Shown here in pieces: positions 7,838 to 58,567 of a stretch of 64,000 nucleotides of DNA. Position 1 is the stretch's first letter; every line of letters starts with the position of its first letter. The stretch is from assembly GCA_965218095.1 (NCBI GenBank), contig OZ244587.1, positions 4,608,001 to 4,672,000 of the forward strand, given 5' to 3'. The stretch comes from Candidatus Poribacteria bacterium. GTDB lineage: Bacteria; Poribacteria; WGA-4E; PCPOR2b. The notes beneath the pieces were generated by a model. The model ran no database searches. It saw only the letters and a list, made by a program, of their open reading frames with translations, and was not told the origin of the DNA. The position numbers and the translations under genes were made by a program.

Positions 7838-8876
7838 ATGAATCGAATAAACATCTCAAGAGTTGCTTCGATCGTATTTAGAATGACGCTAGTTGCTCTG
7901 TATAAGTGGTGTAGTTCCCTTGACAAACTTTCAAGCGCAAGTGCACTCAAAGGTGCAGATTGCTTTTGTCTCCGAGCGAAATGGGAACCGTGAAATCTAT
8001 GTGATGGATGGACGTGGGAAGAATCTCCGCAACCTGACAAACCATCCTGCGACTCACGGCGATCCAGTGTGGTCTCCTGGTAGTCGAGAGATTGCCTTCA
8101 GGCGGGAAAGGGATGAACAGGATGGGCACCACGGGAAACCGGCTATCTAACCGGCTATCTATGTGATGCGCGCTGATGGGAAGAACGTCCGTAAATTGAC
8201 AAACGATCCCGCCGGTGCTGTCCACCCCGCCTGGTCCCCTGATGGCCGTTAGATTGCCTTCTCATCCTTTCGAGATGGGGATTCAGGACCCCAAATCTAT
8301 GTAATGAAAGCTGATGGCACAAACGTCCGCAGGCTCACAGACCATCCTGCATTGGATTACTTTCCCGTCTGGTCCCCTGATGGTGGCAGGATTGCCTTTC
8401 AATCGGATCGAGACTGGGGCATAAGGCTGGACGATGACATCTATGTGATGGATGCCAATGGCAAGAAAATCCAAAACTTGACAAAACACCTTGGACGCGA
8501 CCGACATCCCGCATGGTCGCCAAACGGTCGCCAGATTGCGTTTTCCTCCATACGAGTCGGAAATTTTGGCAACGGAAACTACGACATTTACGTCATGGAT
8601 GCCAATGGGAAAAACGTCCGCCGTATGACAGAAGATCGAAGCGATGATATTCTGCCAGCCTGGTCACCTAACGGCCAAAAGATCGCCTTTTCCTCAAGAC
8701 GGGAGGGGAATTTTGACATGTATGTGATGAATGCCGATGGAACAAACGTCCGCCAGCTCACAAACCACCCAGCAGATGACTGGGGACCAACCTTTGGTTT
8801 CACTGTTGCCCTCTCTGTTTCCTCTTCAGGCAAATGGGCAACGAGATGGGGGAGGCTGAAGCAGATCCGCAAATAA
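7838..8876 (+). pseudogene. TolB-like (PD40 repeat) beta-propeller exported protein with C-terminal WG-K motif; disrupted
   Basis: Repeated IYVM.ADG.N.R.LT..PA.D..P.WSPDG..IAF.S units. Lesions: a frameshift near 7900, a 12-bp duplication (8137-8160) creating TAA, and an in-frame TAG near 8250. Ends SVSSSGKWATRWGRLKQIRK. Confidence 0.88.
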
Positions 8877-9033
8877 ATTCGCACCAAATCGTCAGTAGCT
8901 GATGTGAAGAGTTTGCCCAATTCCGTGCAACAGCGGCGCTCTGAACGGTGAAGACGTCGCTTTTGAGGCTGGCACACACCTTGCAATTTCATGTCTCCGA
9001 TTTACACTCCATGCGTAAGGATGTAATTTTGTC

Positions 9034-9939
9034 ATGAAGTTGCCAACAGTTGCTATCGGCTCGCACCGGATAAGCCGATTAATCATCGGTGGAAACCCAT
9101 ATAGCGGCATTTCCCATCATTCCCCCGCGAAGTCGAAGGAGATGGAGGATTACTACACCGCAGATCGGATGATGGCAGACCTACGGGAAGCGGAACGGTG
9201 CGGAATTAACACTGTCTTGGCGCGGGCGGACCGGCATATCATGCGGGTTTTGAACGAGTATCGAAACGCTGGTGGTCGGATTCAGTGGATTGCGCAGACG
9301 GCAAAAGGGAGTGAGTATGCCGACCTGATGGAGCATATTCGACGAATCGCTCGCTACCAGCCGATTGCCATCTACCATCATGGTGGCACTACAGATCAAC
9401 TCTACGATGCTGGAAAACTAGGTGATACGTTGCACGATGCGTTGAAACTGATCCGAGAGCTCGGCTTTGCTTCTGGTTTGGGGACGCATGACCCATCCAT
9501 TCTAAAAGAGTGCGACGATGAAGGCTACGACGTCGATTTCTACGTCTGTGCGCTTTACAATCACACCCGCCATCGTGAGATGTACCTCCACACAGATCGA
9601 GATACAGCGATTGCAGCAATTCAAACTGTAAATCTTCCGGTGATTGCGATTAAAGTCCTCGCCGCCGGGCGAAGTCAGCCGCTACCGGCGTTTCGATTTG
9701 CGCTCGAAGGTATCAAGCCAATTGACGCAATCGCGGTCGGGATGTATACAAATCGTCAGCCAGATCAGGTCTGCGACAACGTAACGGCGGTTGCTCATCT
9801 AATCCAAGAACAGAAAAAAAGGAGAGTCCATGAAACGCATTTTAGAACCCGAAGTGATGGACACCCGCGAGGAAGCGGAAGCATACAACGCAATGGATCA
9901 CACCGAAGTCAACACGGCATTTGTGGAGCGCGTGGTTGA
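9034..9939 (+). CDS. Hypothetical protein of aldo/keto-reductase-like TIM-barrel type
   Basis: ISRLIIGGNP N-terminus, IAIKVLAAGR and AVGM near the C-terminus. The last ~36 aa overlap the next gene, suggesting a lost stop codon near 9810. Confidence 0.65.
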   Translation: MKLPTVAIGSHRISRLIIGGNPYSGISHHSPAKSKEMEDYYTADRMMADLREAERCGINTVLARADRHIMRVLNEYRNAGGRIQWIAQTAKGSEYADLMEHIRRIARYQPIAIYHHGGTTDQLYDAGKLGDTLHDALKLIRELGFASGLGTHDPSILKECDDEGYDVDFYVCALYNHTRHREMYLHTDRDTAIAAIQTVNLPVIAIKVLAAGRSQPLPAFRFALEGIKPIDAIAVGMYTNRQPDQVCDNVTAVAHLIQEQKKRRVHETHFRTRSDGHPRGSGSIQRNGSHRSQHGICGARG

Positions 9940-10489
9940 ACTCGGTGCGAGCGAAGGGCATTTTCTAGACATCGGGACAGGGCCCGCCCAAATTGCCATC
10001 TTTTTAGCCCAGCGCTGCCCAAAGATCCGGATTACGGCTATCGATCTCTCAGTAAACATGCTCAAACTTGGCGGGAAGCATGTCGCTGAAGCTGGATTGG
10101 CGGATCGGATCTCATTGGAACATGTCGATGCGAAAGACCTGTCCTATTCCGATCAATCCTTTGACGGCGTGATTTCCAACAGCATTATCCACCACCTGCG
10201 AGACCCGATTCCTGCCTTCCGCGGAATAAGCCACGTCATTTGTCCCGGTGGTCTAATCCTCATCCGCGATCTGATGCGTCCCGAAACTCCCGACGCCGCC
10301 CTGGCACTTGTTGATTGTTACGCAGCAAACGACACGCCCTACCAAAAGAAGCTGTTCTACGATTCCTTCCTTGCCTCTCTCACCCTCCCTGAAATCGAAG
10401 CCATGCTTGCCCAGGTAGACCTACCCGGCACCGTTGTCGTTCAGAGTTCAGATCGGCATTGGTCTATCGAGCGCCCTGCAAATGATTAG
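9830..10489 (+). CDS. Class I SAM-dependent methyltransferase
   Basis: FLDIGTGPA motif I, AIDLS, FD.VISNSIIHH, PGG.ILIRDL; AGGAG RBS. Confidence 0.92.
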   Translation: MKRILEPEVMDTREEAEAYNAMDHTEVNTAFVERVVELGASEGHFLDIGTGPAQIAIFLAQRCPKIRITAIDLSVNMLKLGGKHVAEAGLADRISLEHVDAKDLSYSDQSFDGVISNSIIHHLRDPIPAFRGISHVICPGGLILIRDLMRPETPDAALALVDCYAANDTPYQKKLFYDSFLASLTLPEIEAMLAQVDLPGTVVVQSSDRHWSIERPAND

Positions 10490-10568
10490 GTCATATTTGA
10501 AGTTTTTTTCACTTCCAATTTTTTCCTTTGTGTGATAAAATAAATGAAAACGTGTAACAGGAGCAGCA

Positions 10569-34265: not shown

Positions 34266-34392
34266 TGTTTTCTCCTTTTTATCATCAGAAGTGAATGCCA
34301 CGGACTTAAGCGGAATAATGCCGCTATCACTGTATTTACCTGCCTGTGCAACAGCATACAGGCCGCGATTGTGTGACAGGGGGGTAAAGGAA

Positions 34393-36317: not shown

Positions 36318-37229
36318 CTAATACTGTGTTTTCACACGGCCCCAGGTTGTTGTGACTTTTTTCTTGCCAGGATCAACTGCAAAGGGGTGCTGAAAGTTTG
36401 AGTCAGCCTGCTTCGCATCCATCGTAAAGTCATAAATCCGGACAAGATGGACTGAGCCGTTCATGTTCCGATGCTCTTCACCAAGAACCTGGCAAAATAT
36501 GGCGTTAAAGTTCATATCGGCGCCTTTGTCGAAGTCCTGCTCCGGAAAGCCGAGGTTACCGATAAACTCGCCATCCAGGTACTGTTTAACTTGCTTCTTC
36601 GCATCATCGTAAGTGTATATGATGTGGACCCACCTGGTTCCGACCGTCAGGCCGACATCGTGGTGATTCTTCCGTTTGTCGTATACGGTATTAGCCCCCA
36701 GGAGGTAGATCCAGACGTCATCCACATCCGGTCCAAATATCCAGTTTGTAAAGCCAATCATAATCCACTGGGCTCCGGTGGCAAAAGCTTTGCCATCTTT
36801 CGTGGAATGAAAGCCCATTACTTGATGCTCTGCACCTTTCATGGGGCCGTTGCGTTTCATGATGACCTCGAAGCTCCAGTTCTCCAGATGTAGGTTCGGA
36901 GTGAAGCCGGCTGGGGCGGCAAACATCTGGTTTATATCGGTAGTTTTGAACGCTGTCGGCGCCGGACCTCCTGGTTCGTAAAACTCTTCCCCTTTTTCAA
37001 GTTTCGGAGTTCCCTTTCCCAAGTCTGCTCCACCGGGAATTTCGTCCCCGGCCGTGCCGATGTTCTGCCAGGCGCCGTTTTTGAACTGCGCTTCGCCAGC
37101 GAGCATCAAGAGCTGGGGCTCCTCTGGGATTATACCTTGCACTATCGAACCGCTCATGGCAAAGAGAAACACGCCAAGAATGGCAACTCCTTTTATGTGA
37201 TGGTGATTGAATTGATTCAAGCGTAACAT
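36318..37229 (-). CDS. Exported LamG/concanavalin-A-like protein with C-terminal WG-K motif
   Basis: Signal-like N-terminus, W.HI..TYD, YLDG, NGS...VR.YD; ends AVDPGKKKVTTTWGRVKTQY; start after GGAGG. Confidence 0.85.
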   Translation of the reverse strand: MLRLNQFNHHHIKGVAILGVFLFAMSGSIVQGIIPEEPQLLMLAGEAQFKNGAWQNIGTAGDEIPGGADLGKGTPKLEKGEEFYEPGGPAPTAFKTTDINQMFAAPAGFTPNLHLENWSFEVIMKRNGPMKGAEHQVMGFHSTKDGKAFATGAQWIMIGFTNWIFGPDVDDVWIYLLGANTVYDKRKNHHDVGLTVGTRWVHIIYTYDDAKKQVKQYLDGEFIGNLGFPEQDFDKGADMNFNAIFCQVLGEEHRNMNGSVHLVRIYDFTMDAKQADSNFQHPFAVDPGKKKVTTTWGRVKTQY

Positions 37230-37640: not shown

Positions 37641-38525
37641 TTAATAGCCCCGTTTCACACGGCCCCAGGTGGTTGTGAGTTTATCAGCAGGTTCAACAGC
37701 CAATGAAGCTATGAAGTTGTTGCGAACCCCACCTGCGCCAAGATCCTCGTCATACACCCGGACGATGGTGATTGAACCGTTGAAGGTCGAATTTACGAAG
37801 TTCTGGTCGCCCGGTTGTGCAACGAGGACAAAGTTCTGCCCCATGGCCGTGCCTTTGTTGAATTTTTCCACTTTGCGCGCTTGGTCCGCCTTGCCATCTA
37901 TGTAGGACTGGACGGTTTTACCGTCGTGGGTGAGCACTACTTGGTGCCAGTCTCCTGTTCTGATACCTTCATCGGTTTTGAGAGTGACAGCTTTCTTACC
38001 TTTAGGTTTGATCTCGGCTATGATCTGTCCCTTTGCCCCCTTGTCTACGAGCATGCGAATATACTGCCACTCCTTATTGGCTTCCGCTGCCTCGAGGTTG
38101 GGATCACCCCCTTCAACGAAGCCGAAGAAGAGAATTCCGTTCTCCTCTGCGCCTTTGAACGCTTCGCCGTTGCGCCTCAACCAGACCTCGACGGTCCAAT
38201 TCCCCAGCTTTATCTCCGGCGCTGTGCCTCGCTTCCCGCCGAAGGAACTTTCCGGCGCCGAGGCGGTGAAGTGTGCCGGGTTTTTGCCTTCTGCCGCGGA
38301 AAATTTTGGCGGAGGTGGGAAGACATGCCCCCCAATGCGGCCAGCGTCTAGATTCAGGGGAAAGACGCCGCCCGCGGCGCCAAGGTTCCTCCACGACAAT
38401 TTAGCGGTGTCTGCAGCGTTAAGATCGATTAGAGCGCCTTCCTTAACATCTTGACCGAATGCCACTGGACTAACCATTGCCAAGACAAACGCCACGCTCA
38501 GAATTGCAATTAGTTGACGTCTCAT
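37641..38525 (-). CDS. Exported LamG-like protein with C-terminal WG-K motif
   Basis: Signal peptide MRRQLIAIL...AFG, WTVEVW, WHQVV.T.DG, YIDG, FNGSI..VRVYD; ends AVEPADKLTTTWGRVKRGY. Confidence 0.88.
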   Translation of the reverse strand: MRRQLIAILSVAFVLAMVSPVAFGQDVKEGALIDLNAADTAKLSWRNLGAAGGVFPLNLDAGRIGGHVFPPPPKFSAAEGKNPAHFTASAPESSFGGKRGTAPEIKLGNWTVEVWLRRNGEAFKGAEENGILFFGFVEGGDPNLEAAEANKEWQYIRMLVDKGAKGQIIAEIKPKGKKAVTLKTDEGIRTGDWHQVVLTHDGKTVQSYIDGKADQARKVEKFNKGTAMGQNFVLVAQPGDQNFVNSTFNGSITIVRVYDEDLGAGGVRNNFIASLAVEPADKLTTTWGRVKRGY

Positions 38526-38587: not shown

Positions 38588-39481
38588 TTAATAGCCCTGT
38601 TTCACACGGCCCCAGGTGGTTGTGAGTTTATCAGCAGGTTCAACAGCCAATGAAGCTATGAAGTTGTTGCGAACCCCACCTGCGCCAAGATCCTCGCCAT
38701 ACACCCGGACGATGGCGAGTGAACCGTTGAAGCTCGACTTTACGAAGTCATGGTCGCCCGGTTGTGCAACGAAGACAAAGTTCTGACCCATCTTCGCGGC
38801 TTTGTCCCATCCTTCCACTTTGCTCGCTTGGTCCGCCTTGCTATCTATGTAGGACTGGACGGTTTTACCGTCGTAGGTGAGCGCTACCTGGTGCCAGTCT
38901 CCTGTTCCGATACCTTCATCGGTTTTGAGAGTGACAGCTTTCTTACCTTTAGGTTTGATCTCGGCTATGATCTGCCCCTTCGCCCCCTTGTCTACGAGCA
39001 TGCGAATATACTGTATGTCGTTAGCCATCGCTTCCTTGACAATGTCGCCAGCGTTGTGTAGATCTTCGGGGATGAAGCCGAAGAAGACAAACCCGTTCTC
39101 CTCTGCGGGTTCGACCATTTCGCCGTTGCGCCTCAACCAGACCTCGACGGTCCAATTCCCCAGCATTATCTCCGGCGCTGTGCCTCGCTTCCCGCCGAAG
39201 GAACTTTCCGGCACCGAGGCGGTAAAGTGTGCCGGGTTTTTGCCTTCTGCCGCGGAAAATTTTGGCGGAGGTGGGAAGATATGCCCCCCAATGCGGCCAG
39301 CGTCTAGATTCAGGGGAAAGACGCCGCCCGCGGCGCCAAGGTTCCTCCACGACAATTTAGCAGTGTCTGTAGCGTTAAGATCGATTAGAGCGCCTTCCTT
39401 AACACCTTGACCGAATGCCACTGGACTAACCATCGCCAAGACAAACGCCGCGCTCAGAATTGCAATTAGTTGACGTCTCAT
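38588..39481 (-). CDS. Exported LamG-like protein, tandem near-duplicate of 37641-38525
   Basis: Same architecture; ends AVEPADKLTTTWGRVKQGY; the 3' flank TCAATATTAGATCTGGAG is duplicated too. Confidence 0.88.
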   Translation of the reverse strand: MRRQLIAILSAAFVLAMVSPVAFGQGVKEGALIDLNATDTAKLSWRNLGAAGGVFPLNLDAGRIGGHIFPPPPKFSAAEGKNPAHFTASVPESSFGGKRGTAPEIMLGNWTVEVWLRRNGEMVEPAEENGFVFFGFIPEDLHNAGDIVKEAMANDIQYIRMLVDKGAKGQIIAEIKPKGKKAVTLKTDEGIGTGDWHQVALTYDGKTVQSYIDSKADQASKVEGWDKAAKMGQNFVFVAQPGDHDFVKSSFNGSLAIVRVYGEDLGAGGVRNNFIASLAVEPADKLTTTWGRVKQGY

Positions 39482-39781: not shown

Positions 39782-40669
39782 CTAATATCCCCTTTTCACA
39801 TGGCCCCAGGTGGTTGTGAGTTTATCGGCAGGCTCAACAGCCAAAAAATCTATGAAGTTCGTACGAACCCCACCCGCGCCAAGCGCCTTGTCATACACCC
39901 GGATGATACTGAGTGAACCGTTGAAGCTCTCCCCGTTGCGGTCCCAGTCAAGTTGTCCAAGGAAAACCATGTTCTGATCCATAACCTCAGGCACGAAGGC
40001 CACATCCACGTCGTGCAACTTTTGCGCCTTGCCATCTATGTAGGACTGGAGTGTTTTGCCATCACCCTTGTATTCGACCGCAAACTGGCGCCACTCTCCT
40101 GTTCCGATACCCTCTTCGGTTCTGAAAGTCAGAATTTTGCCCTGTGGCACTTTGACCTTGAAGACTATCTGCCCCGCTGCCCCATCTGCTACGAACATAC
40201 GAATATACTGCACGTTGGGGGCATCGAGTTCAAATACGCGTGCCGCTTGATCTACCTTCTCCGACCCGAGGCCGAAGTAGGCAAGTCCGTTCTCGTCGCC
40301 CTGTTCCCACGCTTCGCCGTTGCGCCTCAACCAGATCTCAATGGTCCAGCTCGTCCCCAGCTTGAAGTGCGAAGCGGTGCCGCGTATTGAGCCGAAGGAG
40401 CTAGACGGTACCTCGCTGGTGTAATGTGCCGGCTCGTCACCCTCGGCCTTTACGTGTTTGGGCGGAGGTGGGATTTTCGACCAGTTGTCTGCATTTAGGG
40501 CAAATTTTCCGCCGGACGTGCCATCATTCCCCCAAAACAATGGCCTAGCATTCTCGCTCGCCGCGTTAAGCTCTATCTGGGCGCCAGGGGCAACACCGAA
40601 TGCCATTGAACCGGCCATTGTCAAGACAAATGCCGCGCTCAGAATTGAAATCGGTTTTAGGCGTATCAT
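39782..40669 (-). CDS. Exported LamG-like protein with C-terminal WG-K motif
   Basis: More diverged paralog; WTIEIWLRRNG, QYIRM, FNGSL..IRVYD; ends AVEPADKLTTTWGHVKRGY. Confidence 0.88.
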   Translation of the reverse strand: MIRLKPISILSAAFVLTMAGSMAFGVAPGAQIELNAASENARPLFWGNDGTSGGKFALNADNWSKIPPPPKHVKAEGDEPAHYTSEVPSSSFGSIRGTASHFKLGTSWTIEIWLRRNGEAWEQGDENGLAYFGLGSEKVDQAARVFELDAPNVQYIRMFVADGAAGQIVFKVKVPQGKILTFRTEEGIGTGEWRQFAVEYKGDGKTLQSYIDGKAQKLHDVDVAFVPEVMDQNMVFLGQLDWDRNGESFNGSLSIIRVYDKALGAGGVRTNFIDFLAVEPADKLTTTWGHVKRGY

Positions 40670-44196: not shown

Positions 44197-44348
44197 TGGT
44201 CTCCCACCTTCTCATTCACACCAAACATCATCGTATTTCAACAAGGCTTCCCATATGCTTTCAAATACGCCGGCTTGGACCCACCGCCGAAAACGGTGCG
44301 TACCGTTGAGCTTGGGACATTAGTCTTTAGCACTACAACGAAATTTTT

Positions 44349-44381
44349 GTAGGAGAACAAGCTGCTAGCTTGTTCTCCTAC
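44349..44381. repeat. GTAG-type perfect palindrome (REP-like, possible terminator)
   Basis: GTAGGAGAACAAGCT-GCT-AGCTTGTTCTCCTAC. Confidence 0.75.
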
Positions 44382-44421
44382 AGCGCGGATCTTGGAAGAT
44401 AACCGCGCGGCTCAAGGAACG

Positions 44422-46281: not shown

Positions 46282-46626
46282 CTGCTTCCTCCTATAAGAA
46301 AAGTGAAAAGTCAGAAACAAGGAGAACAAGGGACTACCCCCGATAAATCAGGGTAGAGCCTGGTCTCGCATAGCGGACTCCGAGAATCGGAGAGCGTTGC
46401 CCTCCCGGGGGGGGGTAGCAAACCATCAATCTTCACGTATGTTTCATAGACAACCTGGACGGTTATACTCATGTAGGTTATTATTTGTGAATTTCTATGT
46501 GAAGAGATATCGCATCCAGGAAGAAAGGGAAGGAGGAGAAGGAATGGAAGAAAGGCGAAATTCCTTCCTTTCCCTCCATTCTTCCTTTCCTTCCAAACTT
46601 GAAATTATAAGTTCACATTTCTCGTT

Positions 46627-47646: not shown

Positions 47647-47907
47647 ACCTCCTTAGATTTTGAGTGGTGCGTGAAAAGCCTTATGTATACTGCGATTTGA
47701 CTTTGTTACATTTGCCCTCCGGCCCCCAATTCTGAGGGAGTTTGTGCGATTCTCCCTCCAGCATTGGGGGGCCGGGGGAGGGCAAGCTGCCAGTGGATTG
47801 GCCGATGAGCCCTCATACAAAGTCAAGATAAATTACACTTTCGCAAAGTCGCAACGATATCAGTTCTGACCTGCAGCAATATATTACGCATGAGGTTTTA
47901 CGTTTCG

Positions 47908-48864: not shown

Positions 48865-49008
48865 TGTGTGTTTCTCCTTCCTGATTCACATAAAAAGCGA
48901 AAATACTGTTTTCGCGGTCAGTTAGGGTGGGTTAGCTTGAGGGAACGCTTTGGGGGTGATCCCTCCGATATTCAATAGAAGTACCGAGAATCCTTAACCA
49001 GTGTCATT

Positions 49009-50496
49009 CTACTCAAGCGCCCCGATTTTTGCAGTTTCTGGCGCTTTGGTCGGCAGCTTCTGCTTTGCCATCCGATCTTCTGGCACATAACCGGAGTAAT
49101 CTGAAATTGAACCGTGTGTCAGTGCGTAGACCGCGACATTGGTCATGAAACGATAGACGCCGGGGGAGTAATGCACGCCCCGGGTGGGTAAACTGACCGA
49201 CTCCATCGCACACATATAGTCACGACGGACCATCAGGACTGAAAGTTTTTCGCCAACGGAAACGCCTTCAAGGAAATTCCGCTTGTTCTCTCTGAATCGC
49301 AAACCCCAGAAATGGGCAAAACCGACCGGTGGTCCACCCATCTCATAGAAGTTATCGTAGACTTCGTGGTCGTTGGGAACACGCTGAACCTGATATTCGG
49401 GCATCACATATCGCATCTGAGCGAGGAACAAGCGGGTTATGCCGTGGGCCGCCGCGTTTATACCGCAGTCGTCAAAGACGAAGAAACCACCTCTTTCAAC
49501 GAAATACCGCCGCAATGCAGCGGCCTCCGCCTCGGTAAATTTGTTACCTATCTTTTGACCGCCGCCACCGCCGCCGCGTCTAATCAAGTTCTGCCCCTTG
49601 GCCATTGCGGGATCATGGCCTGTCATGAAGATTAACGGGCATTTCTGCAAGTTGGCGTCAGTCAATTTCAACGCGCCGCCTTGAACATTCATGTCCGTTT
49701 TGATCTGCGTTCGGTGATTGAGCCAGTTGGTAAATGCGTTCAGTGAAGACGCATCCGCCCACCAGTCAGAAAGAGTGTGGCGCACGCGCGTGAAGCGGAA
49801 TACACCTCGAATGTCACGACCTTTACCGATGACTCGACCGCCCGGTTCGCCGCGTGGCAGCGGCGGCACTTCAACGTTACCCAGCATGATGTTCTCAACC
49901 ACATCACTCAAGGCGTCGCGAGCGGCTCCTACATGCTCAACCATCGCAAGCCCCGCCGGACGCTTGAAAGCAACCTTCACCTGCACAAGACCGCCCATAC
50001 CACGACCGATGTTCGCCGGCGCGGCGCTTGGAGCCGTTGCAACAGGGGCAGAAAATGCCAACGCACCGGGCGCATCAGAAACGGGCAGGTCAGCGTGCGT
50101 TACCACTTGAGGCACCGGAACATTGGGGTTGACTACTTTCGGAACGTTTGGATTGATAGGTGCATCCAGTTTAACAACTTTATTCGAGAATTCAAGCACA
50201 GTTTGCGGTTGGACTGCGGTCGGACGAACGACAGCCGCCGTCGTCACTCGCGGTTGGACTTGAACTTGCTCAACAACGACGGTACTCGTGGTCGGAACCG
50301 TTGGCTTGACAACCGGTTTGATAACCGGTTTGCGAACCTGGGGTTTGGGGGGATCCTTCGCTTTTAGGACCTCAGCGCCCACTAAATCTTTGAACTGTTG
50401 GGTTTGGGTGACGAGATAGATACCGGCGATAAAGGCAATCACGCCGTGAAGAATCAACGAGATCATCAAAGCTCCTGAAGTTTGCTTGACACTCAT
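49009..50496 (-). CDS. DUF4159-domain protein with N-terminal TM anchor and Pro/Val-rich linker
   Basis: SLILH TM helix; DWW.D.S, P.I.MTGH, LR.Y..E.GG....DDCG, H.VY..FY, D.MCA.E, F.TN...Y. Confidence 0.8.
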   Translation of the reverse strand: MSVKQTSGALMISLILHGVIAFIAGIYLVTQTQQFKDLVGAEVLKAKDPPKPQVRKPVIKPVVKPTVPTTSTVVVEQVQVQPRVTTAAVVRPTAVQPQTVLEFSNKVVKLDAPINPNVPKVVNPNVPVPQVVTHADLPVSDAPGALAFSAPVATAPSAAPANIGRGMGGLVQVKVAFKRPAGLAMVEHVGAARDALSDVVENIMLGNVEVPPLPRGEPGGRVIGKGRDIRGVFRFTRVRHTLSDWWADASSLNAFTNWLNHRTQIKTDMNVQGGALKLTDANLQKCPLIFMTGHDPAMAKGQNLIRRGGGGGGQKIGNKFTEAEAAALRRYFVERGGFFVFDDCGINAAAHGITRLFLAQMRYVMPEYQVQRVPNDHEVYDNFYEMGGPPVGFAHFWGLRFRENKRNFLEGVSVGEKLSVLMVRRDYMCAMESVSLPTRGVHYSPGVYRFMTNVAVYALTHGSISDYSGYVPEDRMAKQKLPTKAPETAKIGALE

Positions 50497-50642
50497 TTGT
50501 TACCTCCAAAATTATTATGATTTGCATTAGCAATTGGACACCCCGTTGCATTATCTTGCAGGGGAAACCAAAGTCTGTTTACTATCCTAGGCGAACTATT
50601 TAACTAACTCCAGGGTTCAAGGGCGAGCAGTCAGGCGCCTCC

Positions 50643-52439
50643 CTATCGATAGAGCAACTCGTCCGAGGCAAACCGGGTGACTTTCTTCCAGTGCACCGTG
50701 TTGTCCCGGTAGTGCTCACGCTGGTAGAGCGGATGGTACACACCTGTTGGCTGGATGTTAACCACCTCGTTCCCCTTGCACACCAGATTGTACGGCTGCT
50801 TCTCGATCGTGACCCAGTGGGTGTGCTCCTCAATCGGGAAGGTCAGCGCCGCTACCGTGCCAGCCGCAGTCTGGCCCACCTGCGCGTAGCGCCCTTGCCA
50901 GCCGACCGTACGGACCTCACCATCCACCCGACAGGTGATTTGCTCCGGCTCGACCCACTCCGGGATGCGTATTGACAGCTCTACGTCCTGCTTGATCTTG
51001 ACATCAACCTGGCCCTCGTAGGGTAGGTAGCTGTCTATATCGGCCCAAGGCGACGTCCGGTTAAGCAGCAGATTCACCCGCAGCTTGCCCCCCTCATGGG
51101 TGAGAATGTGCTCCCAGATGAAGTAGAGTGCCCGTGAGCCAGTTCCGGAGCAGCAGCCGGCGAAGCCCATATTATGGCCGCCCATAAAGTCATTCGGCAA
51201 AGCAGAGCTGGTGAAGGCGCCTACACACGCGTCCCCGACACCTTCTGTCCGCTGGCGGCGAGGGTCCGTTTGGCTCCATGCTGTTGAGGACCCGTGTGGA
51301 CCTGACCAGGCCCGCCGCTCGATCCAGTCGCCGTGGGTTAACTGCTGCTCCACAAACTGGTTGCGCAGCCAACGGTCCACGTCGTCCCAGTAGTCACCCG
51401 CGCCGATAATGCTCAAGCGCAAGCCCAGGCCGATCATGTCCGCCAAGCCGCAGGTCTCGCACATCTGGAAGTTCTCCCGGAAGAGCAGCTCCGGAAAGTA
51501 GCCCGTCCGAGGTTCGCCGTGGACGCGGGCGAACTCGAACCCCTGCTGCGCAAACTCAATCAGTTCTTGGTCGCCGCCTGCAGCCAGGGCGTAGTCTAGG
51601 ATTTCCAGCAGGGAATGGACGTGGGCGTAGAAGTGGGCTTCGGGCCCCGGTCGGCGTTTGCACGCCCGAAAGCTGGCGTCAGGGCCGAAGTGGTTGCCGT
51701 GATTTTTGATGGTCCGCACCAGCTTGCCTGCCAGTTCCAGGCAAGGCTCGTAGCCGGTCTCCTGGAAAAAGAGGAGCAGCCCGTGCACCACCCACCCTCC
51801 ATGGGAGACCATGTGTGGGTTCGGCATGGTCGGATCGGTCCAGGGGATAACGCTCTGGGGAAAGTACGCGTAATCGCCCTTATCCACCACATTCGCCGCC
51901 AGCCCCTGCACCAGCCGCTCGCCGGTCTCTTTCCACAGAGACTCGCGGCTGCGATGATAGTAAAGCGCCAGGATGGTAAGTCCCCAGGCGCCCGTTAAGA
52001 TGGAGGTCCGATCGCCCGTGCTGGCGCCATGGGTCCCGAGCGAGTTGAAGGCCAGCCAGGGCCTTTCCTCGATCTTCTCGTAGAGCAGCCCATCCGGCGC
52101 TTGCATGTGCAGCAGGACCTTCGTCCAATGTTCCTCCACGTGCGTATTGAGGTCGCTGCCGCTCATAATCCGCATGAGTGGCAACTGATCGTGCCATAAC
52201 ATTTGATTCCAGATGTCCCAGTGCCAATGCCCGATAAAGGGAGGATTGCTCCCCAAAACTGTCACGTAGTAAATTTCGTAATCAGCCTCGGGATCGCTCC
52301 GGGATGTTATACTATGGATAGCCAGAGCCGCCCGCTCCTGCAGATCAAGGGTAGCGGGGACCATGGCTTCGTAGCGTTGTCCCTTATAGGGTGGAATCTC
52401 AAAAGCTGGAATCTCCTCACGTATGTACTTGAAATCCAT
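50643..52439 (-). CDS. GH127/DUF1680-like glycoside hydrolase homolog (paralog of 44422-46281)
   Basis: HFYAH, CETC..AD, RNQF.EQQ, GCC.G.G.RALY, PYEG.V, RIPEW. Confidence 0.7.
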   Translation of the reverse strand: MDFKYIREEIPAFEIPPYKGQRYEAMVPATLDLQERAALAIHSITSRSDPEADYEIYYVTVLGSNPPFIGHWHWDIWNQMLWHDQLPLMRIMSGSDLNTHVEEHWTKVLLHMQAPDGLLYEKIEERPWLAFNSLGTHGASTGDRTSILTGAWGLTILALYYHRSRESLWKETGERLVQGLAANVVDKGDYAYFPQSVIPWTDPTMPNPHMVSHGGWVVHGLLLFFQETGYEPCLELAGKLVRTIKNHGNHFGPDASFRACKRRPGPEAHFYAHVHSLLEILDYALAAGGDQELIEFAQQGFEFARVHGEPRTGYFPELLFRENFQMCETCGLADMIGLGLRLSIIGAGDYWDDVDRWLRNQFVEQQLTHGDWIERRAWSGPHGSSTAWSQTDPRRQRTEGVGDACVGAFTSSALPNDFMGGHNMGFAGCCSGTGSRALYFIWEHILTHEGGKLRVNLLLNRTSPWADIDSYLPYEGQVDVKIKQDVELSIRIPEWVEPEQITCRVDGEVRTVGWQGRYAQVGQTAAGTVAALTFPIEEHTHWVTIEKQPYNLVCKGNEVVNIQPTGVYHPLYQREHYRDNTVHWKKVTRFASDELLYR

Positions 52440-52603
52440 AGGGGTTGCCTCCTCAGATAGCAATTGGTTTTTGTAATCGTCCCCTGTGTAATCGTCCCCT
52501 GGTTGTGTTACATTGATTATGTTATGCGCTGCGAACCGAAAATTCTCACCAACTCAGGCGTAGCACCTTGGCTATATTCGGGATATTGCGGTCTGCTCTG
52601 CGT

Positions 52604-53347
52604 TTAGAAACTCTTTATCCGACCCCAGGCGGTTGTGAGTTTGGCTTCAGGTGAAACTGCGAAAAAATTCATATCTATCTTAGGAATCTCATCACCTGTA
52701 ATGACGACGTTATCGAAATGAACCTCGCAATTTCTTCCCAGGATTGCTGCAGCCCCTGTAGCTCGGAACCTACCTAGGAAATTACAAACTAACGTGTCGT
52801 TGATAAACATCCTGTAACGATTTCCATCAGCAACAATTCGCAATGCATACCATCTCCCCTCCTTAATAGGGAAATTGACAGCAACCTCAACAATGTCTGC
52901 GTCTCCTTGAAAGAAGAGTTCGCAAAAAGCCGCATTCCAGTCATCACCTTCTGTCGAAATCTTAACATCTGTACCAGTGATGAAGCCTTTTGTATCGTCG
53001 TAACGAACCCCAATGCTAAAGAATGGCCGCCGGGAGGGAAAATCACATCCAGCATGGAGGAAAGCTTGTTCAACTTTGGCTTGGCACTCAAACTCATAAT
53101 CTTTCCATGTATTATCGCCAATTCCAAGGGTGCTTGCCGATCGACAAACCCCTTGGGAAAGGCAAACCAGTTCGCCTTCTTCCACAAACCATTGGGCTGA
53201 TTCACCATGGATGAAAACATCTCCGGCCTTCCCTTCAAATAGCCGCCACCCATCAAGATTCCCATCGTCAAAGTTATCCCTTAATGTTCGTGCCCATGCC
53301 GATGTTGCCAGCAGGAATAGTATCAACCCAACCATTGTGTGTTTCAT
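52604..53347 (-). CDS. Exported DUF1080/ConA-like domain protein with C-terminal WG-K motif
   Basis: Signal MKHT...SAWA, DNFDDG...GW, W.DY, WY.LRI...G, HFDNVVITG; ends AVSPEAKLTTAWGRIKSF. Confidence 0.8.
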   Translation of the reverse strand: MKHTMVGLILFLLATSAWARTLRDNFDDGNLDGWRLFEGKAGDVFIHGESAQWFVEEGELVCLSQGVCRSASTLGIGDNTWKDYEFECQAKVEQAFLHAGCDFPSRRPFFSIGVRYDDTKGFITGTDVKISTEGDDWNAAFCELFFQGDADIVEVAVNFPIKEGRWYALRIVADGNRYRMFINDTLVCNFLGRFRATGAAAILGRNCEVHFDNVVITGDEIPKIDMNFFAVSPEAKLTTAWGRIKSF

Positions 53348-54860: not shown

Positions 54861-56168
54861 CTAAACCTCGCTTCGGACATCTATCTTGCCGGTGACAACT
54901 TCGGAGATGAGGGATTGACGGTATTCTTTGAGGAGTTCAACTTTTCGCTGTTCTGCGGATATCAGTTCGTCGATCTGCTCGGTTTTGCGGTCAAGGAAGT
55001 CGGCGATTTGGGTTTGTTCAGAAAACGACGGGAAGATAGCAGATATATTCTTGAAATTATCATAATATAAGTTATGCCTCTGGTCTACTACTTGGTAAGA
55101 TGCCCTATCAAAGGTCGTTTTATACAAATCAGTCCGAAATAGATAATGAAAATACTTGGAAACTAACTTTGTAGTAGGGCGACAAACCTGATAGGCTGGA
55201 CTGACTATTCCTTCATAATCAGACATACCTATTCCACCTTTCCAAACTGTCATTACATTAAAAGCAATATCGCCAATTTTTACTCTCTTATAGAGAGATT
55301 TGTCCACAGATGAAACATCTTTTTGACCTGTTTCACTTTTTGGAATTATCCCCTTTATGCCAATTGAAAGTAAAATCAAATTTGGATAACCAACATCTCT
55401 AATTTGCTGGAATATAAACTTGTTGCGAATCACTTCCCAATGCTTCGGTATTTCCCCAATCCACTCTACGCCTGATGGTTTCATCTCCACATTTGGGTCA
55501 AGCCCCTTCGTCACTGCCTGATTTATCAGAACAGTTCGTTGTTCTTGCAGCAGTTCTATCTTTCGTTCCTTGATGCGGCTCAGTTCGTCTATCTGTTGGG
55601 TCTTGCGGTCGAGGAAGTTGGCGATTTGGGTTTGTTCTTGTTTGGGTGGTACTGATAGCAGTAACTCGTCAATAGACTGTGTATTAAGGTTAGCCAATCC
55701 AGTAGTCGTTTCACTTTGATATTTATACTGCTCTCGTGCGAGAGGGCAGTTCATGAAGTAGTGCAGAAATTTGCTGTTGATGTGGCTCTTGGGACAAATC
55801 CTTTGAACAAAGTTTGAGTAACAAACGAACATAGACTCGATTTTTTCATCAACGAGACCTGTTTTTCCAATGTGGTCTTGACTACCACTGGATTTCGTGA
55901 TTACCAAATCACCTTTCTTGAGCAAAAATCTTTCTGCTTCTTCCTTGCTAATCTCCCGTTTTATTAAACCCCGTAAATCCCAATGACCATCTATCGTGAT
56001 TTCCGTTGACCGAAGGACATAAGTACCAGTTCCAAATTCATCGTCTTGTCCCCAAATGCCACCAGAGTTTTCAGAGAGATGAAACTTAAACCTACTGCAT
56101 CTCCAATGCGCTGGTATCTCCCCAATCCAATCCACACCACTCTCTTTATATTCAGGATAACGCTTTAT
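54861..56168 (-). CDS. hsdS: Type I R-M specificity subunit HsdS (two TRDs); expected ATG reads ATA
   Basis: (I)KRYPEYKESGVDWIGEIP.HW, PP..EQ.QIA.FLD twice, AVTKGLDP.V.MK.SG.EWIGEIP.HW, L.EYRQSLISE.VTGKIDVR; an in-frame GTG at 56135 is an alternative start. Confidence 0.93.
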   Translation of the reverse strand: MKRYPEYKESGVDWIGEIPAHWRCSRFKFHLSENSGGIWGQDDEFGTGTYVLRSTEITIDGHWDLRGLIKREISKEEAERFLLKKGDLVITKSSGSQDHIGKTGLVDEKIESMFVCYSNFVQRICPKSHINSKFLHYFMNCPLAREQYKYQSETTTGLANLNTQSIDELLLSVPPKQEQTQIANFLDRKTQQIDELSRIKERKIELLQEQRTVLINQAVTKGLDPNVEMKPSGVEWIGEIPKHWEVIRNKFIFQQIRDVGYPNLILLSIGIKGIIPKSETGQKDVSSVDKSLYKRVKIGDIAFNVMTVWKGGIGMSDYEGIVSPAYQVCRPTTKLVSKYFHYLFRTDLYKTTFDRASYQVVDQRHNLYYDNFKNISAIFPSFSEQTQIADFLDRKTEQIDELISAEQRKVELLKEYRQSLISEVVTGKIDVRSEV

Positions 56169-56203: not shown

Positions 56204-56204
56204 C

Positions 56205-56272: not shown

Positions 56273-56284
56273 TAGCACCATTGG

Positions 56285-57136
56285 TTAATACTGCGTTTTC
56301 ACACTGCCCCAGGTTATTGCGAGTTTTGAGGCAGGCTCAACTGCTGCCGCCTCGGGGTTTTTGAAGTTGTTGCGAATTTCCGCATCGCTCAGCACCCGGT
56401 CATACACCCGGACAAGATGGATTGAACCGTTGAAGTTCCGACGCGCTTCAGAACGGACCTGGCAGAAGATCGCGTGATAGTTCATATTCACATCTTTGAC
56501 AAAGTCATGAACAGTCTTTATCGCCTTTTCTTTCTCGCCATCCATCCAGGGCTGAAGTTGGTTGCCTCCTCGTCCGCCTTTATCTTTGTAGGTGAATAAG
56601 ATGTGGTGCCACTTTCCTACCCCGATATCCATGACGCCGTAAGCCACCCGGTTTGCCAACGGGGTCTTCGCCCCTTTGAGGTACATCCACATCGCCCCCC
56701 CGTTCACCGTGTAGAAGCCCAACATGATCCACTGGCTTTGTTCTGTAAACCAACCGCCACCATCCACAGAATGGAAGCCAGCGACCTGGTGCTCATCGCC
56801 ATACGCTGGGCCGTTGCGCTTCAAGATGACCTCGACAGTAAAGTCCTCCAGATGCAGGGTCGGGTTAGCACCGGCCGGGCCGCCGAATATCTGGCTCCCC
56901 CTTTTAGCGGTGAACCGCGCCGGGTTCTTACCCTCGGCCGGTTCGAAAACCGGTGCCGACCCACCGGGTATCACCCCACCGGCGACGCCGCGGTTCTTCC
57001 AGCTACCGTTGACGAGGCTCGCTTCGTCAGCAATAAGCTCAAGCTGGGGGCCTTTGACGGCGCCTCGCGCCATAGAACCGGCCATTGCAAAAAGAAGCGT
57101 CAGACTGAGAATCGCAATTCCTTTTAGGTAGTTCAT
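56285..57136 (-). CDS. Exported LamG-like protein with C-terminal WG-K motif (paralog of 36318-37229)
   Basis: Signal peptide, FTVEV.LKRNG, WHHI.FTY, FNGSIHLVRVYDRVLS..EI; ends AVEPASKLAITWGSVKTQY. Confidence 0.88.
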   Translation of the reverse strand: MNYLKGIAILSLTLLFAMAGSMARGAVKGPQLELIADEASLVNGSWKNRGVAGGVIPGGSAPVFEPAEGKNPARFTAKRGSQIFGGPAGANPTLHLEDFTVEVILKRNGPAYGDEHQVAGFHSVDGGGWFTEQSQWIMLGFYTVNGGAMWMYLKGAKTPLANRVAYGVMDIGVGKWHHILFTYKDKGGRGGNQLQPWMDGEKEKAIKTVHDFVKDVNMNYHAIFCQVRSEARRNFNGSIHLVRVYDRVLSDAEIRNNFKNPEAAAVEPASKLAITWGSVKTQY

Positions 57137-57166
57137 TTTATATCATCCTTTTACTATAAAGTTATA

Positions 57167-57300: not shown

Positions 57301-57381
57301 ATTATATAACCTCTCTAAAAAGTCGTCAAGCCAAAAGTTGTAAAGCAGCCTCTTGACAGCGGATGCGTTTGAGTGTATAAT
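57301..57381. promoter_or_regulatory. Back-to-back divergent sigma70 promoters between two LamG genes
   Basis: Minus strand: TTGACG-17-TATAAT (57329-57301). Plus strand: TTGACA-17-TATAAT (57353-57381). Confidence 0.75.
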
Positions 57382-57399
57382 TCAAAGGTTGATAGGTGG

Positions 57400-57710
57400 A
57401 AGAGGCGTTGTGGACGTTTGTGCGCCTGGAGGGTGTGGAGCCAACAAATCACGCCGTGGAACGAGCGGTACGGTCGGGTGTGCTATAGCGCAAGGGGAGT
57501 TTCGGCCGTCTAGCACCGATGGCATCCGCTTTGTGGGACGGATTTGGACAGTGGTTGCCACACTCAGACAGCAAAAACGCAATGTCCTTGCATCTCTGAC
57601 GGAGGCCTGCGAAACCACGATTCAGGGCGAAAAGGCGCCATCGCTGCTTCCTAATGAGATGGTCGGCAGCCAACCGACTGGGTAACCTCTACGACCACCT
57701 GAACAGTTAG
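57400..57710 (+). mobile_element. IS66 remnant: TnpC transposase C-terminus plus right end
   Basis: Broken GVEPTN..ER..R....RKGSFG..S..G.RFV.RI.TVVATLRQQKRNVL..LT.AC....G..APSLLP; ends ACCTGAACAGTTAG (compare the MITE end ACCTGAACGGTTAC). Confidence 0.85.
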
Positions 57711-57736
57711 AAAAAACGAAAAAGGAGGAAATCAAA

Positions 57737-58567
57737 ATGAAAGGCATTATCACGAGATTCCTTTTCGTCTCTGTCAGTATCATTGTCGTGAGTCTTTGGT
57801 CTCCACTCCGGGGTTCTGCCGAAATTGACCTCAAAAACGTTGTGGGAATCTGGACCTTTGATGAGGGCACAGGTGACCTGGCCAAGGACATCTCTTTGAA
57901 AAGGAATCATGGAAAGCTTATTGCCCCAAAGAGAAATGATCCTCCAAAATGGGTCAAAGGAAAGTTTAGTCAGGCGTTGGAATTTGACGGGCAACCGTAT
58001 TTTGGGAATTATGTTGACATGGGGGATCCAGCGGACGGCTCTCTCGATTTTGGGAAAAACGATTTTTCCGTCACTTGGTGGTTCAAAACGACAGCGCTGG
58101 GCAAGTATATGGTTTCCAAAAAAGCTGCTGGTCACTTTGATGCAGGTTTTCATGCCAATCTGGATGGCCCAAGGGGGAATCTTCGTATCCTTCTGGCAGA
58201 TGGGAAGATAGATGCCAGCGTGGATGGGGAAACAGGGAACCTCCATAACGACAAATGGCATCATGGCGCTTTTGTGAGATCTGGAGATAAGTTACAGGTG
58301 TACGTGGATGGGAGGGCAAATAACTCGACGGCCGGCGTCGTAAACCTTGACATTAGCAGCACGACGAATTTTTATGCCGGTCGAGAGAACAATGGAAACA
58401 AGAGATACCCCGGCCTCCTCGACGACCTTGCCGCCTTTTCTGTTGCCTTAACGGAAGATGAGATTAAAGAGATCATGAACGAGGGGCTAAGAGAGGTAGT
58501 TCCGACTGCTGCCGTTTCCCCCAAAGGGAAACTTGCCACTGCTTGGGGCGCCATCAAAGCCCGATAA
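57737..58567 (+). CDS. Exported LamG (Laminin_G_3-like) protein with C-terminal WG-K motif
   Basis: VGIWTFDEG.G..AKD.S, WV.GKF..AL.FDG, KWHH.AFV, YVDG, G.LDDLA.F..AL..DEI..IM; ends AVSPKGKLATAWGAIKAR. Confidence 0.92.
   Translation: MKGIITRFLFVSVSIIVVSLWSPLRGSAEIDLKNVVGIWTFDEGTGDLAKDISLKRNHGKLIAPKRNDPPKWVKGKFSQALEFDGQPYFGNYVDMGDPADGSLDFGKNDFSVTWWFKTTALGKYMVSKKAAGHFDAGFHANLDGPRGNLRILLADGKIDASVDGETGNLHNDKWHHGAFVRSGDKLQVYVDGRANNSTAGVVNLDISSTTNFYAGRENNGNKRYPGLLDDLAAFSVALTEDEIKEIMNEGLREVVPTAAVSPKGKLATAWGAIKAR

Follow-up and report, generated by a model that had tools for sequence, protein, structure and literature searches.

A conserved C-terminal tail on exported binding-module proteins of Poribacteria as a candidate undescribed address or docking label

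Eight open reading frames in a single 64-kb stretch of poribacterial DNA (hereafter the window, meaning the whole stretch analyzed) end in the same short motif, which raises the question of whether this tail is a signal and, if so, for what. Poribacteria are dominant, uncultured sponge symbionts, and we know of no account of how their proteins are presented to the host matrix. A possible sorting domain for which no secretion pathway was found has already been noted in Poribacteria, in the accessible part of Kamke 2014. The tail described here has the appearance of a label for addressing or docking that has not been described before.

The tail motif and its carriers

The C-terminal motif is real, and stronger than the first-pass annotation of the window had it. 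All eight of the open reading frames listed there were confirmed to end in it, 2-4 residues ahead of the stop (Table 1). The consensus, [LF]-[APS]-V-[ED]-P-x-x-K-L-[TAS]-T-T-W-[GA]-x-[ILV]-K, is about 17 residues long (about 17-20 aa); between it and the stop codon lie a further 1-12 residues. In the logo of 186 unique tails, the W and the final K are each present at 100%, followed by V (96%), K (95%), L (88%), and two T positions (86% and 82%). The six frames of the window give 823 stop-to-stop ORFs of ≥40 aa, of which 11 match the expression W[GA].{1,2}[IVLM]K; the listed C-termini account for eight, and the other three match internally, in ORFs of 63-78 aa. A degenerate DNA pattern of the tail has five window matches against 0.00 expected, and 0 of 100 shuffles contained any match. 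The tail is absent from every other ORF of the window, whether of a lipoprotein or of a cytoplasmic protein, as the annotation had stated.

Table 1. Tail-bearing genes of the window and the positions of their tails.
Feature	Coordinates	Strand	Details
PD40 beta-propeller pseudogene	~7893..8876	+	homologous frame with two in-frame stops
Degenerate tail LSVSSSGKWATRWGRLKQIRK	8811-8873	+	
LamG protein	36318..37229	-	303 aa from Met of relative P0006; Sec signal peptide; PF13385, 28 bits
Tail FAVDPGKKKVTTTWGRVKTQY	36321-36383	-	
LamG protein	37641..38525	-	294 aa; Sec signal peptide
Tail LAVEPADKLTTTWGRVKRGY	37644-37703	-	
LamG protein	38588..39481	-	297 aa; tandem paralogue; relative P0002
Tail LAVEPADKLTTTWGRVKQGY	38591-38650	-	
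LamG protein	39782..40669	-	295 aa from Met 31 of ORF; tandem paralogue; relative P0005
Tail LAVEPADKLTTTWGHVKRGY	39785-39844	-	
DUF1080/3keto-disac_hyd protein	52604..53347	-	247 aa; Sec signal peptide; relative P0061; PF06439
Tail FAVSPEAKLTTAWGRIKSF	52607-52663	-	
LamG protein	56285..57136	-	283 aa; Sec signal peptide; relative P0007
Tail AAVEPASKLAITWGSVKTQY	56288-56347	-	
LamG protein	57737..58567	+	276 aa; Sec signal peptide; AlphaFold-modelled; PF13385, 83.8 bits
Tail AAVSPKGKLATAWGAIKAR	58508-58564	+	

The window holds seven intact Sec-exported tail proteins and one PD40 pseudogene. The latter had been read as an intact protein at 8304-8876, but the frame from about 7893 is interrupted by a TAA at 8148-8150, which arises from a perfect 12-bp tandem duplication (8137-8148 / 8149-8160), and by a TAG at 8250-8252. 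No usable start or signal peptide was found for this remnant, and the count of Sec-type N-termini is therefore seven of eight rather than the eight originally claimed. The claim of different folds is likewise thin within the window, which offers six Laminin_G_3 proteins, one DUF1080/3keto-disac_hyd protein (a fold that we take to be ConA-like too), and the PD40 remnant, but it holds in other genomes. The LamG protein at 37641..38525 is 100% identical to its relative P0001 over the last 42 aa.

In public genomes, all 157 matches to the DNA pattern are in frame and 1-12 codons ahead of a stop, with a distance of 2-5 codons in 134 of them, so the motif is not an internal one. Searched exhaustively by HMM, the tail yielded 779 cluster representatives at E ≤ 0.001; among the best 150 matches, the tail core lies ≤12 residues from the protein end in 144, and the protein ends exactly at the core in one. 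Codon third positions stand at 1.6-2.0 bits at the conserved residues, where positions 1 and 2 are fixed, and the pattern also holds at V(-10), a residue outside the search pattern. The tail is conserved by selection at the protein level. Labelled sources are almost all Poribacteria, in agreement with the similar tails on Poribacteria-like proteins mentioned in the first-pass annotation, and up to at least five tails per assembly occur among the matches listed.

Beyond the final Lys, 31% of residues are K or R (n = 471 residues). At least one K/R is found there in 102 of 139 tails and at least two in 32; the last residue of the protein is R or K in 63 of the 139, with R the commonest (50/139). 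Kyte-Doolittle analysis of the last 25 aa of 92 proteins detected no membrane-spanning segment (best 15-residue window, mean 0.27 and maximum 1.01), which bears out the annotation on this point. Neither Pfam nor NCBIfam holds a model for the tail, as judged from whole proteins and from 99 isolated tails (E ≤ 10 for the tails), and a literature search with the motif strings found no paper, in line with the annotation, which knew of no named system for such tails.

Passengers, neighbors, and predicted structure

The 75 full tail proteins that were assigned with Pfam comprise 39 LamG, 4 CBM9, 3 CBM_4_9, 3 DUF3108-like, 2 PD40, and 2 DUF1080 proteins, and 22 without any Pfam family. A Kelch passenger also occurs (P0068), and another member is labelled DUF4960 by its source. 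The tail is modular, as the same tag is found on at least six Pfam families and on unassigned passengers. The proteins are small, about 200-350 aa (median 273, maximum 351 aa), none of 85 ORFs runs off 1.5 kb of upstream sequence, and no enzyme domain was found among the tail-bearing passengers. A signal-peptide-like N-terminus is present in 245 of 254 tail proteins of ≥200 aa, consistent with the claim that the motif is absent from cytoplasmic proteins; a loose lipobox expression matches 13 of the 254, mostly within the h-region. Structurally, the LamG passenger matches a carbohydrate-binding domain of the arabinanase AbnA best. Among four tail-less relatives of this passenger, three differ at the N-terminus, where one has a prepilin-type domain and the two others look like lipobox proteins.

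Tail genes occur in tandem arrays, and the window has a run of four; of the 279 ORFs in the sampled loci, 104 carry the tail. Across 80 loci, no non-tail family recurs in more than seven, and no candidate reader or machinery gene was found beside the tail genes; the dedicated machinery proposed in the first-pass annotation is thus not supported. The LamG-tail cluster is bordered by FGE-fold lipoproteins, which have the same fold as PorK/GldK of the T9SS ring and are the only T9SS-like components in the window. At one locus (L005), a cohesin+dockerin protein adjoins a tail gene. Tails on unrelated passengers are about as similar within an assembly (0.411) as between assemblies (0.400), a comparison that is underpowered at 66 within-assembly pairs and in which 356 of 2000 permutations reach the observed difference.

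AlphaFold models were obtained for two of the window proteins. The LamG protein at 57737..58567 has a mean pLDDT of 82 with a core above 90, and its last two 10-residue blocks drop to 51-55; residues 262-275 are drawn as a low-confidence helix rather than a hairpin. The DUF1080 model is poor overall (mean pLDDT 59, 6 sequences) and renders the tail as coil with pLDDT <50. In both models confidence is lowest in the tail, which does not pack against the passenger and contributes no predicted strand to its fold, the outcome that favors the annotation.

A proposed docking tag and its rivals

Taken together, these observations make it probable that the tail is some post-Sec C-terminal targeting or docking signal. 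The original proposal of a secretion, anchoring, or cleavage signal survives to the extent that the tag is modular, strictly C-terminal, and carried by exported proteins; a general secretion signal is disfavored because no enzyme or large protein bears the tail. The specific reading that we favor tentatively, at less than an even chance, is that of a tag for docking or retention, by which binding modules would be tethered to one conserved component of the envelope. The tag forms the very end of small binding proteins that have a single module and are exported by Sec, with a short variable stretch ahead of it; after export, it would probably fold as a beta-hairpin, with [LF]-A-V-[ED] as one strand, P-x-[GDSN]-K as the turn, and L-T-T-T-W as the other. 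The hairpin would bind non-covalently to a receptor protein or an envelope polymer, and otherwise free lectin-like modules would thereby be held on the cell. Its role would be that of the lipid anchor in surface glycan-binding lipoproteins or of the dockerin in cellulosomes.

We infer the hairpin conformation, the preference for docking over export or cleavage, and the single conserved receptor from several leads. The small, non-enzymatic binding-module passengers point to tethering over general secretion, as does the choice of another N-terminal feature by three of the tail-less LamG relatives, an argument that rests on only four proteins. A lead for the hairpin is that P-x-[GDSN]-K lies between two beta-branched stretches in the logo and that the front half of the tail matches the motif repeated in P0339, a repeat protein, and in the designed 'Bagel' proteins, which are beta-propellers. 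Against docking, no receptor was found among the neighbors, tails are no more alike within assemblies than between them in the underpowered comparison above, and AlphaFold gives a helix of low confidence in place of the hairpin. Known docking modules (dockerin, SLH, LysM) also occur away from the protein end, and a position strictly at the end would suit export or processing signals no less. A more novel reading is possible, and we hold it with more doubt: the tail would address proteins to a new, essentially Poribacteria-specific envelope system for sorting or attachment, and would be a new class of C-terminal signal, of about 17 residues and with neither a TM segment nor a folded CTD, whose own putative reader displays a lectin-like repertoire on the symbiont surface.

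The leading rival, which we consider unlikely, is that the tail signals export or attachment, being recognized and probably removed by a putative outer-membrane translocation or surface-attachment machinery according to the logic of T9SS CTDs or sortases, with a signal that is much shorter and has no TM segment. The strictly C-terminal position, the five of Haft's seven sorting-domain attributes that the tail shows, and the enrichment of basic residues past the final Lys agree with this, as do the flanking lipoproteins of the PorK/GldK fold, but the latter score only 129-135 bits, where the GldK cutoff is 350, and belong to a subfamily with members outside Poribacteria. Kamke 2014, in the part accessible to us, reports orphan hits of T9SS-CTD type from this phylum and found no Por genes, which would suit the same explanation. 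However, the T9SS CTD models do not match the tail, the low hydrophobicity leaves no TM segment for an intramembrane sortase, no machinery gene recurs beside the tail genes, and a general route of secretion would hardly be expected to leave out enzymes and large multidomain proteins, none of which bears the tail.

The low-confidence helix suggests a further, improbable reading, in which the tail anchors the protein in the plane of the membrane as a short amphipathic helix in direct contact with lipid or LPS, as in the C-terminal anchors of PBP5 and PBP6. The spacing of L(-4), W(0), and [ILV](+3) at i, i+4, and i+7 with flanking invariant Lys could be read in this way, and Trp and Lys would be typical interfacial residues. 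However, the helix reaches a pLDDT of only 51-55, the hydrophobicity is low, the conservation of Thr-Thr, Gly, Pro, and Val-[ED] would go far past what a generic amphipathic segment needs, and Thr-rich runs with Gly would disfavor a helix. More improbable again is an assembly tag, whereby tails bind each other or a neighboring subunit to give multivalent homo- or hetero-oligomers; lectins often gain avidity through oligomerization and the tail genes lie in tandem arrays, but a segment of about 13 residues would be short for a stable bundle, and a common acceptor groove on the passenger is unlikely because the passenger folds are diverse. The least probable is an intramolecular or propeptide role without sorting (an edge-strand cap, a folding aid, or a propeptide cut by a tail-specific protease), which the resemblance of the front half to a repeated strand-turn-strand motif and the existence of C-terminal processing peptidases in diderms would allow, but which the occurrence of one tail on six or more Pfam folds and its unpacked state in both models argue against.

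Whichever reading applies, a tag common to hundreds of small glycan-binding-type proteins makes a surface or secreted lectin repertoire listable from sequence alone, and the tag, as a peptide or an antibody epitope, is a handle with which to fish out its reader. If it is a sorting or docking signal, the grammar of bacterial C-terminal signals would be extended to a short, TM-less form, and the tag might serve as a compact display tag.

Comparison with known systems

Small C-terminal sorting domains have been characterized by seven attributes (Haft, 10.1101/2023.06.07.544157), and the tail shows five of the seven as set out in the accessible part of that source. With the tripartite signals LPXTG, PEP-CTERM, GlyGly-CTERM, and MYXO-CTERM it shares a small size and a place at the very end of the protein, several copies per genome (seven intact and one pseudogene in the 64-kb window), signature residues that do not vary, signal peptides at the N-terminus, and passengers that are otherwise unrelated. 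It differs from the signals of sortase, exosortase, rhombosortase, and myxosortase in having no hydrophobic TM segment and no clear Arg cluster (Haft's end cluster has 2-5 basic residues, and at least two K/R follow the final Lys in 32 of the 139 tails), and in that no cognate enzyme was found beside the tail genes. Lacking a membrane-spanning segment, the tail cannot be membrane-held for an intramembrane sorting enzyme.

With the T9SS CTD, the tail shares the character of a TM-less C-terminal signal on Sec-exported proteins of a diderm, and the PorK/GldK-fold lipoproteins add a likeness that stays far below the GldK cutoff. The T9SS CTD is a folded domain of 70-100 aa, its machinery includes PorK/L/M/N, SprA, and PorU/V, and its cargo includes many enzymes and large proteins, whereas the tail passengers are all small binding modules. 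The first-pass annotation was right that the tail is far shorter, at about 17 residues against models of 72 and 75 positions (TIGR04183 and PF18962). Neither model matches the tail in whole proteins or in the 99 isolated tails at E ≤ 10, and an identity with the CTD was rejected; the only sub-threshold matches fall inside the PD40 repeats (17.2 bits for TIGR04183, whose cutoff is 23, at residues 83-107; 13.5 bits for PF18962, whose cutoff is 27, at residues 87-109).

Three other assignments were also rejected. A beta-signal of outer-membrane proteins does not fit, as a terminal F, Y, or W is present in only 16 of 139 tails. Peptidoglycan attachment of the Lpp type through a terminal Lys conflicts with the 1-12 residues after the invariant Lys in 157 of 157 matches; trimming to the bare Lys may allow it. 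Encapsulin or microcompartment targeting peptides, which mark cytoplasmic cargo with no signal peptide, do not agree with the signal-peptide-like N-terminus of 245 of the 254 tail proteins.

Two other systems offer parallels to a docking tag. Dockerins, which bind cohesins in the cellulosome, are likewise modular appendages, and the tail could similarly tether diverse exported modules to a common receptor. A dockerin is a duplicated calcium-binding module of about 60-70 aa, and the tail itself is not one: PF00404, a model of 57 positions, has no match in the tails, and the tag is too short for it. Dockerins are also usually found on enzymes, whereas the tail is found on binding modules. The SusE/F-type glycan-binding lipoproteins of Bacteroidota, a functional analogy, are surface proteins anchored by an N-terminal lipid, unlike the tail proteins with their plain Sec signals (loose lipobox in 13/254). 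Both are small beta-sandwich modules of carbohydrate-binding type, which would be useful only if held at the cell surface.

A C-terminal peptide tag on exported poribacterial proteins

The tail, a motif of ∼17 residues, is a modular, phylum-wide C-terminal peptide tag on exported proteins and is under protein-level selection. Translation of the window confirmed that all eight open reading frames (ORFs) named in the first-pass annotation end in the motif, 2-4 residues ahead of the stop. In a six-frame translation of the window, 823 ORFs reach 40 aa, and a loose core regular expression matches 11 of them: the eight listed ones at their C-termini, and three others internally, in ORFs of 63-78 aa. 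A degenerate tail DNA pattern matches five times in the window against 0.00 expected, and 0 of 100 dinucleotide-preserving shuffles matched.

The C-terminal 42 residues of the eight window proteins were made into a profile and searched against a word-indexed set of 5.8 billion proteins; 92 of the 6505 candidates scored E<=1. The core regular expression lies within 10 residues of the end in 89 of them, and the other three (P0014, P0018, and P0048) carry a ...TTWGREK... variant in the same place. When 185,579 species genomes were scanned with the degenerate DNA pattern, which requires the Pro, at least 137 loci from at least 81 assemblies were found. The titles among the 137 loci listed comprise 129 Poribacteria, seven "uncultured bacterium", and one Chloroflexota, the last a 51-aa ORF that looks like a chance match; the first-pass statement that Poribacteria-like proteins carry similar tails is borne out. 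The motif is C-terminally restricted: among the matches listed, all 157 are in frame and lie 1-12 codons ahead of a stop, most of them (134) 2-5 codons ahead. A profile HMM of 99 tails was also compared exhaustively, without a word index, with 1.84 billion cluster representatives, and 779 of these reached E<=0.001. Among the best 150 of these 779, the core lies within 12 residues of the end in 144; five are short fragments (50-123 aa) whose 15-59 extra residues look like read-through, and the repeat protein P0339 (486 aa), which matches only the front half of the tail, is a false positive. Pro-less variants occur among LamG relatives P0427-P0446 (for example ...V-V-S-S-A-A-K-L-T-T-T-W-G... and ...V-Y-P-S-G-K-L-T-T-T-W-G...), so the Pro-requiring DNA pattern undercounts tails.

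The named sources are Candidatus Poribacteria plus three others. The label of a "Puniceicoccaceae" MAG is doubtful because its tail protein has 82-83% full-length identity to P0147 (labeled Poribacteria) and P0049, members of the same Poribacteria-labeled cluster; another source is a sponge genome assembly, presumably through symbiont DNA, and the third is a 4.4-kb contig of a Planctomycetota MAG. The tail is abundant in Poribacteria, and these figures do not establish strict restriction to the phylum.

The consensus of 186 unique tails is [LF]-[APS]-V(96%)-[E51/D19]-P(87%)-x-x-K(95%)-L(88%)-[T/A/S]-T(82%)-T(86%)-W(100%)-[G79/A18]-x-[I/L/V]-K(100%), where the DNA pattern prescribes P for tails taken from the loci but leaves V and E/D free. 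At conserved residues the third codon positions retain 1.6-2.0 bits of entropy while positions 1 and 2 are fixed, which places selection on the peptide rather than on a DNA or RNA element and rules out a DNA or RNA repeat as the source of the conservation.

Passengers and conformation of the tail

The window proteins had been described as eight exported proteins of different folds. The seven intact ones do have ordinary Sec signal peptides, and the PD40 "protein" (8304-8876) does not, being a pseudogene with in-frame stops and no start. Tail-bearing full-length PD40 relatives of 330-348 aa align to a single frame at ∼7893-8870, which contains an in-frame TAA (8148-8150) created at the junction of a perfect 12-bp tandem duplication (8137-8148/8149-8160) and a second in-frame stop, TAG, at 8250-8252. 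P0008, a relative from another large genome, is likewise short (177 aa). Fold diversity inside the window is thin, with six Laminin_G_3 passengers (the domains preceding the tail), one DUF1080 (3keto-disac_hyd), and the PD40 remnant; it is in other genomes that the passengers diversify.

The loci listed yield 75 full ORFs that are 200 aa or longer. Each of them starts with a signal-peptide-like hydrophobic segment, and Pfam (E<=1e-4) assigns the passengers to Laminin_G_3 (39), CBM9_1 (4), CBM_4_9 (3), DUF3108-like (3), PD40 (2), DUF1080 (2), or no family (22). Further passengers are Kelch (P0068) and, by one source's label, DUF4960. In line with the expected co-occurrence with Sec signals, 245 of the 254 unique tail proteins that reach 200 aa have a signal-peptide-like N-terminus, and the other nine look truncated or mis-started; a loose lipobox expression matches 13 of the 254, mostly within the h-region. 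Tail proteins are uniformly small: where the locus extends 1500 nt or more upstream (85 matches), no ORF runs off it (median 273 aa, maximum 351 aa), and the 35 proteins of at least 200 aa among the best 150 HMM matches span 221-317 aa except for the 486-aa false positive. No enzyme domain was found on tail proteins in the Pfam-scanned ORFs, the length-checked matches, or the best HMM matches. Structurally, the LamG passenger comes closest to carbohydrate-binding domain 4 of the GH43 arabinanase AbnA (E 6e-13); its other matches are generic lectin-like jelly rolls at 10-20% identity, a similarity at the level of fold only.

In an AlphaFold2 model of the LamG protein 57737-58567 (59 sequences, mean pLDDT 82, sandwich >90), the tail is predicted as a low-confidence helix (262-275) outside the sandwich strands, and the final two 10-residue blocks score 51 and 55. 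The DUF1080 protein model, built from six sequences, is poor (mean pLDDT 59), with residues 222-247 below 50 and in coil. Neither model, the DUF1080 one being weak, makes the tail an integral strand of its passenger. The tail sequence itself would favor a hairpin over a helix, because stretches with many beta-branched residues lie on either side of P-x-[G/D/S/N]-K. In a PDB profile search with the tail, the four matches at E<=10 cover the front half alone, and this half matches a repeated motif of P0339 and of designed "Bagel" proteins, which are beta-propellers. We regard these features as a lead to a hairpin, not a demonstration. With the tail segment, the ESM Atlas gave best scores of 0.81-0.87, below the usable range.

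Neighboring genes and candidate readers

No non-tail family occurs in more than 7 of 80 long loci (279 ORFs clustered, among the loci listed). The recurrent ones are a methyltransferase (7 loci), FG-GAP/ASPIC and cupin (5 each), and FGE-sulfatase, PhyH, and ECF sigma (4 each), and none is a candidate for tail machinery. Tail genes themselves form tandem arrays, with 104 of the 279 ORFs carrying the tail. Features near the tail genes are collected in the table; the DDE transposase and Type I S subunit genes hint at local rearrangement. The relatives of its tail proteins place the window itself in Poribacteria, and its DUF3500 gene has 66-67% nucleotide identity to three Poribacteria loci.

Features in the neighborhood of tail genes (window coordinates unless a locus is named)
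Feature	Coordinates	Strand	Remarks
DDE transposase gene	5444-6184	+	
Decayed PD40 beta-propeller gene with tail	7893-8876	+	In-frame stops; N-terminal signal-peptide region lost
Four FGE-sulfatase-fold lipoproteins, three with PKD domain	31109-35892 and 41054-42025	-	Flank four LamG-tail genes
Same-strand run	42289-52463	-	Between LamG-tail array and DUF1080-tail gene
DUF6785/DUF6784 membrane protein	within 42289-52463	-	
Two PPIC-type PPIase proteins	within 42289-52463	-	Lipoprotein-like N-termini
TM+DUF4159 protein	within 42289-52463	-	
Two proteins, ∼606 and 635 aa, no family	44422-46329 and 50643-52463	-	Strings at both termini look alike
Type I restriction-modification specificity (S) subunit gene	54861-56135	-	Between two tail genes
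Exported 276-aa protein, N-terminal Lepto_7_Nterm (NF047433, 47.2 bits vs cutoff 43)	58797-59627	+	C-terminus ...VALRW; directly downstream of LamG-tail gene
Second DUF4159 gene	59631-60980		Adjoins another tail gene
548-aa protein, cohesin + dockerin	2100-3743 of L005 (Poribacteria chromosome locus)	-	Adjoins tail-bearing LamG gene; neighbor family in 2 loci

The FGE-fold lipoproteins are the only concrete receptor candidate, because the tail core loosely resembles the sulfatase motif bound by FGE, C-x-P-x-R...L-T-G-R. With the long starts assigned to them, ORFs 31109-32911 and 32757-34463 overlap; both starts are probably over-extended. In NCBIfam the lipoproteins match the T9SS ring lipoprotein PorK/GldK best, but their 129-135 bits fall far short of its cutoff of 350. 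They have no cysteine opposite the C-H-D-S-Y-C segment of Streptomyces FGE (2q17), the site of the catalytic cysteine pair, and would on that basis be structural or binding proteins with no catalytic role. The idea that the tail is a pseudo-substrate of these proteins was rejected, as the lipoprotein subfamily is very large, with 5125 matches at E<=1e-30, and extends beyond Poribacteria; a single predicted docking run of FGE domain and tail scored 0.00 and speaks neither for nor against binding. Tails on unrelated passengers are about as similar within an assembly (0.411) as between assemblies (0.400), a difference reached by 356 of 2000 permutations; this null result, from a weak test, is compatible with one conserved reader.

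Interpretation and relation to known C-terminal signals

We tentatively favor a docking or retention tag on three grounds. The passengers are all small binding modules, which would be of little use unless held on something; the tag was found on no enzyme or large protein, which disfavors general secretion; and three of four tail-less relatives of the LamG passengers, a very small sample, instead carry an N-terminal pilin-type or lipoprotein-like feature. The main rival, which we hold less likely, is an export or attachment signal that some putative machinery would read and might remove; the strict end position of the tail fits it well. Direct membrane binding as a helix, oligomerization, and an intramolecular or propeptide role are lesser possibilities.

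In the tail region no Pfam or NCBIfam model matches, be it in whole proteins or in 99 isolated tails, apart from one unrelated match per library at E<=10. Literature searches for the tail motif or its tryptic-peptide strings found nothing, and those combining Poribacteria with LamG, sorting, dockerin, or secretion found nothing relevant; within the libraries and literature searched, the tail is undescribed. The sole TIGR04183 (T9SS CTD) signal here is sub-threshold (17.2 bits; cutoff 23) and maps to residues 83-107 of ORF 8304-8876, inside the PD40 repeats and not in the tail. Kamke 2014 reports putative TIGR04183 domains on poribacterial repeat proteins and no Por genes; PD40-repeat cross-matches to this model could account for published T9SS-type domains without T9SS genes.

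The tail does not reach the length of a T9SS CTD or a dockerin, only 16 of 139 tails end in the aromatic residue that typifies the OMP beta-signal, and the invariant Lys is non-terminal. A further comparison is with small C-terminal sorting domains, for which Haft's preprint (10.1101/2023.06.07.544157) sets out seven attributes, in passages that make no mention of Poribacteria. By that account the tail shares five of the seven. Unlike those domains it has no TM segment (best 15-residue Kyte-Doolittle window mean 0.27, maximum 1.01), and its terminal basic bias is weak (31% K/R after the final Lys; at least two K/R in 32 of 139 tails). That the tag marks a truly new sorting system seems doubtful; we rate it as belonging with C-terminal sorting or docking tags.
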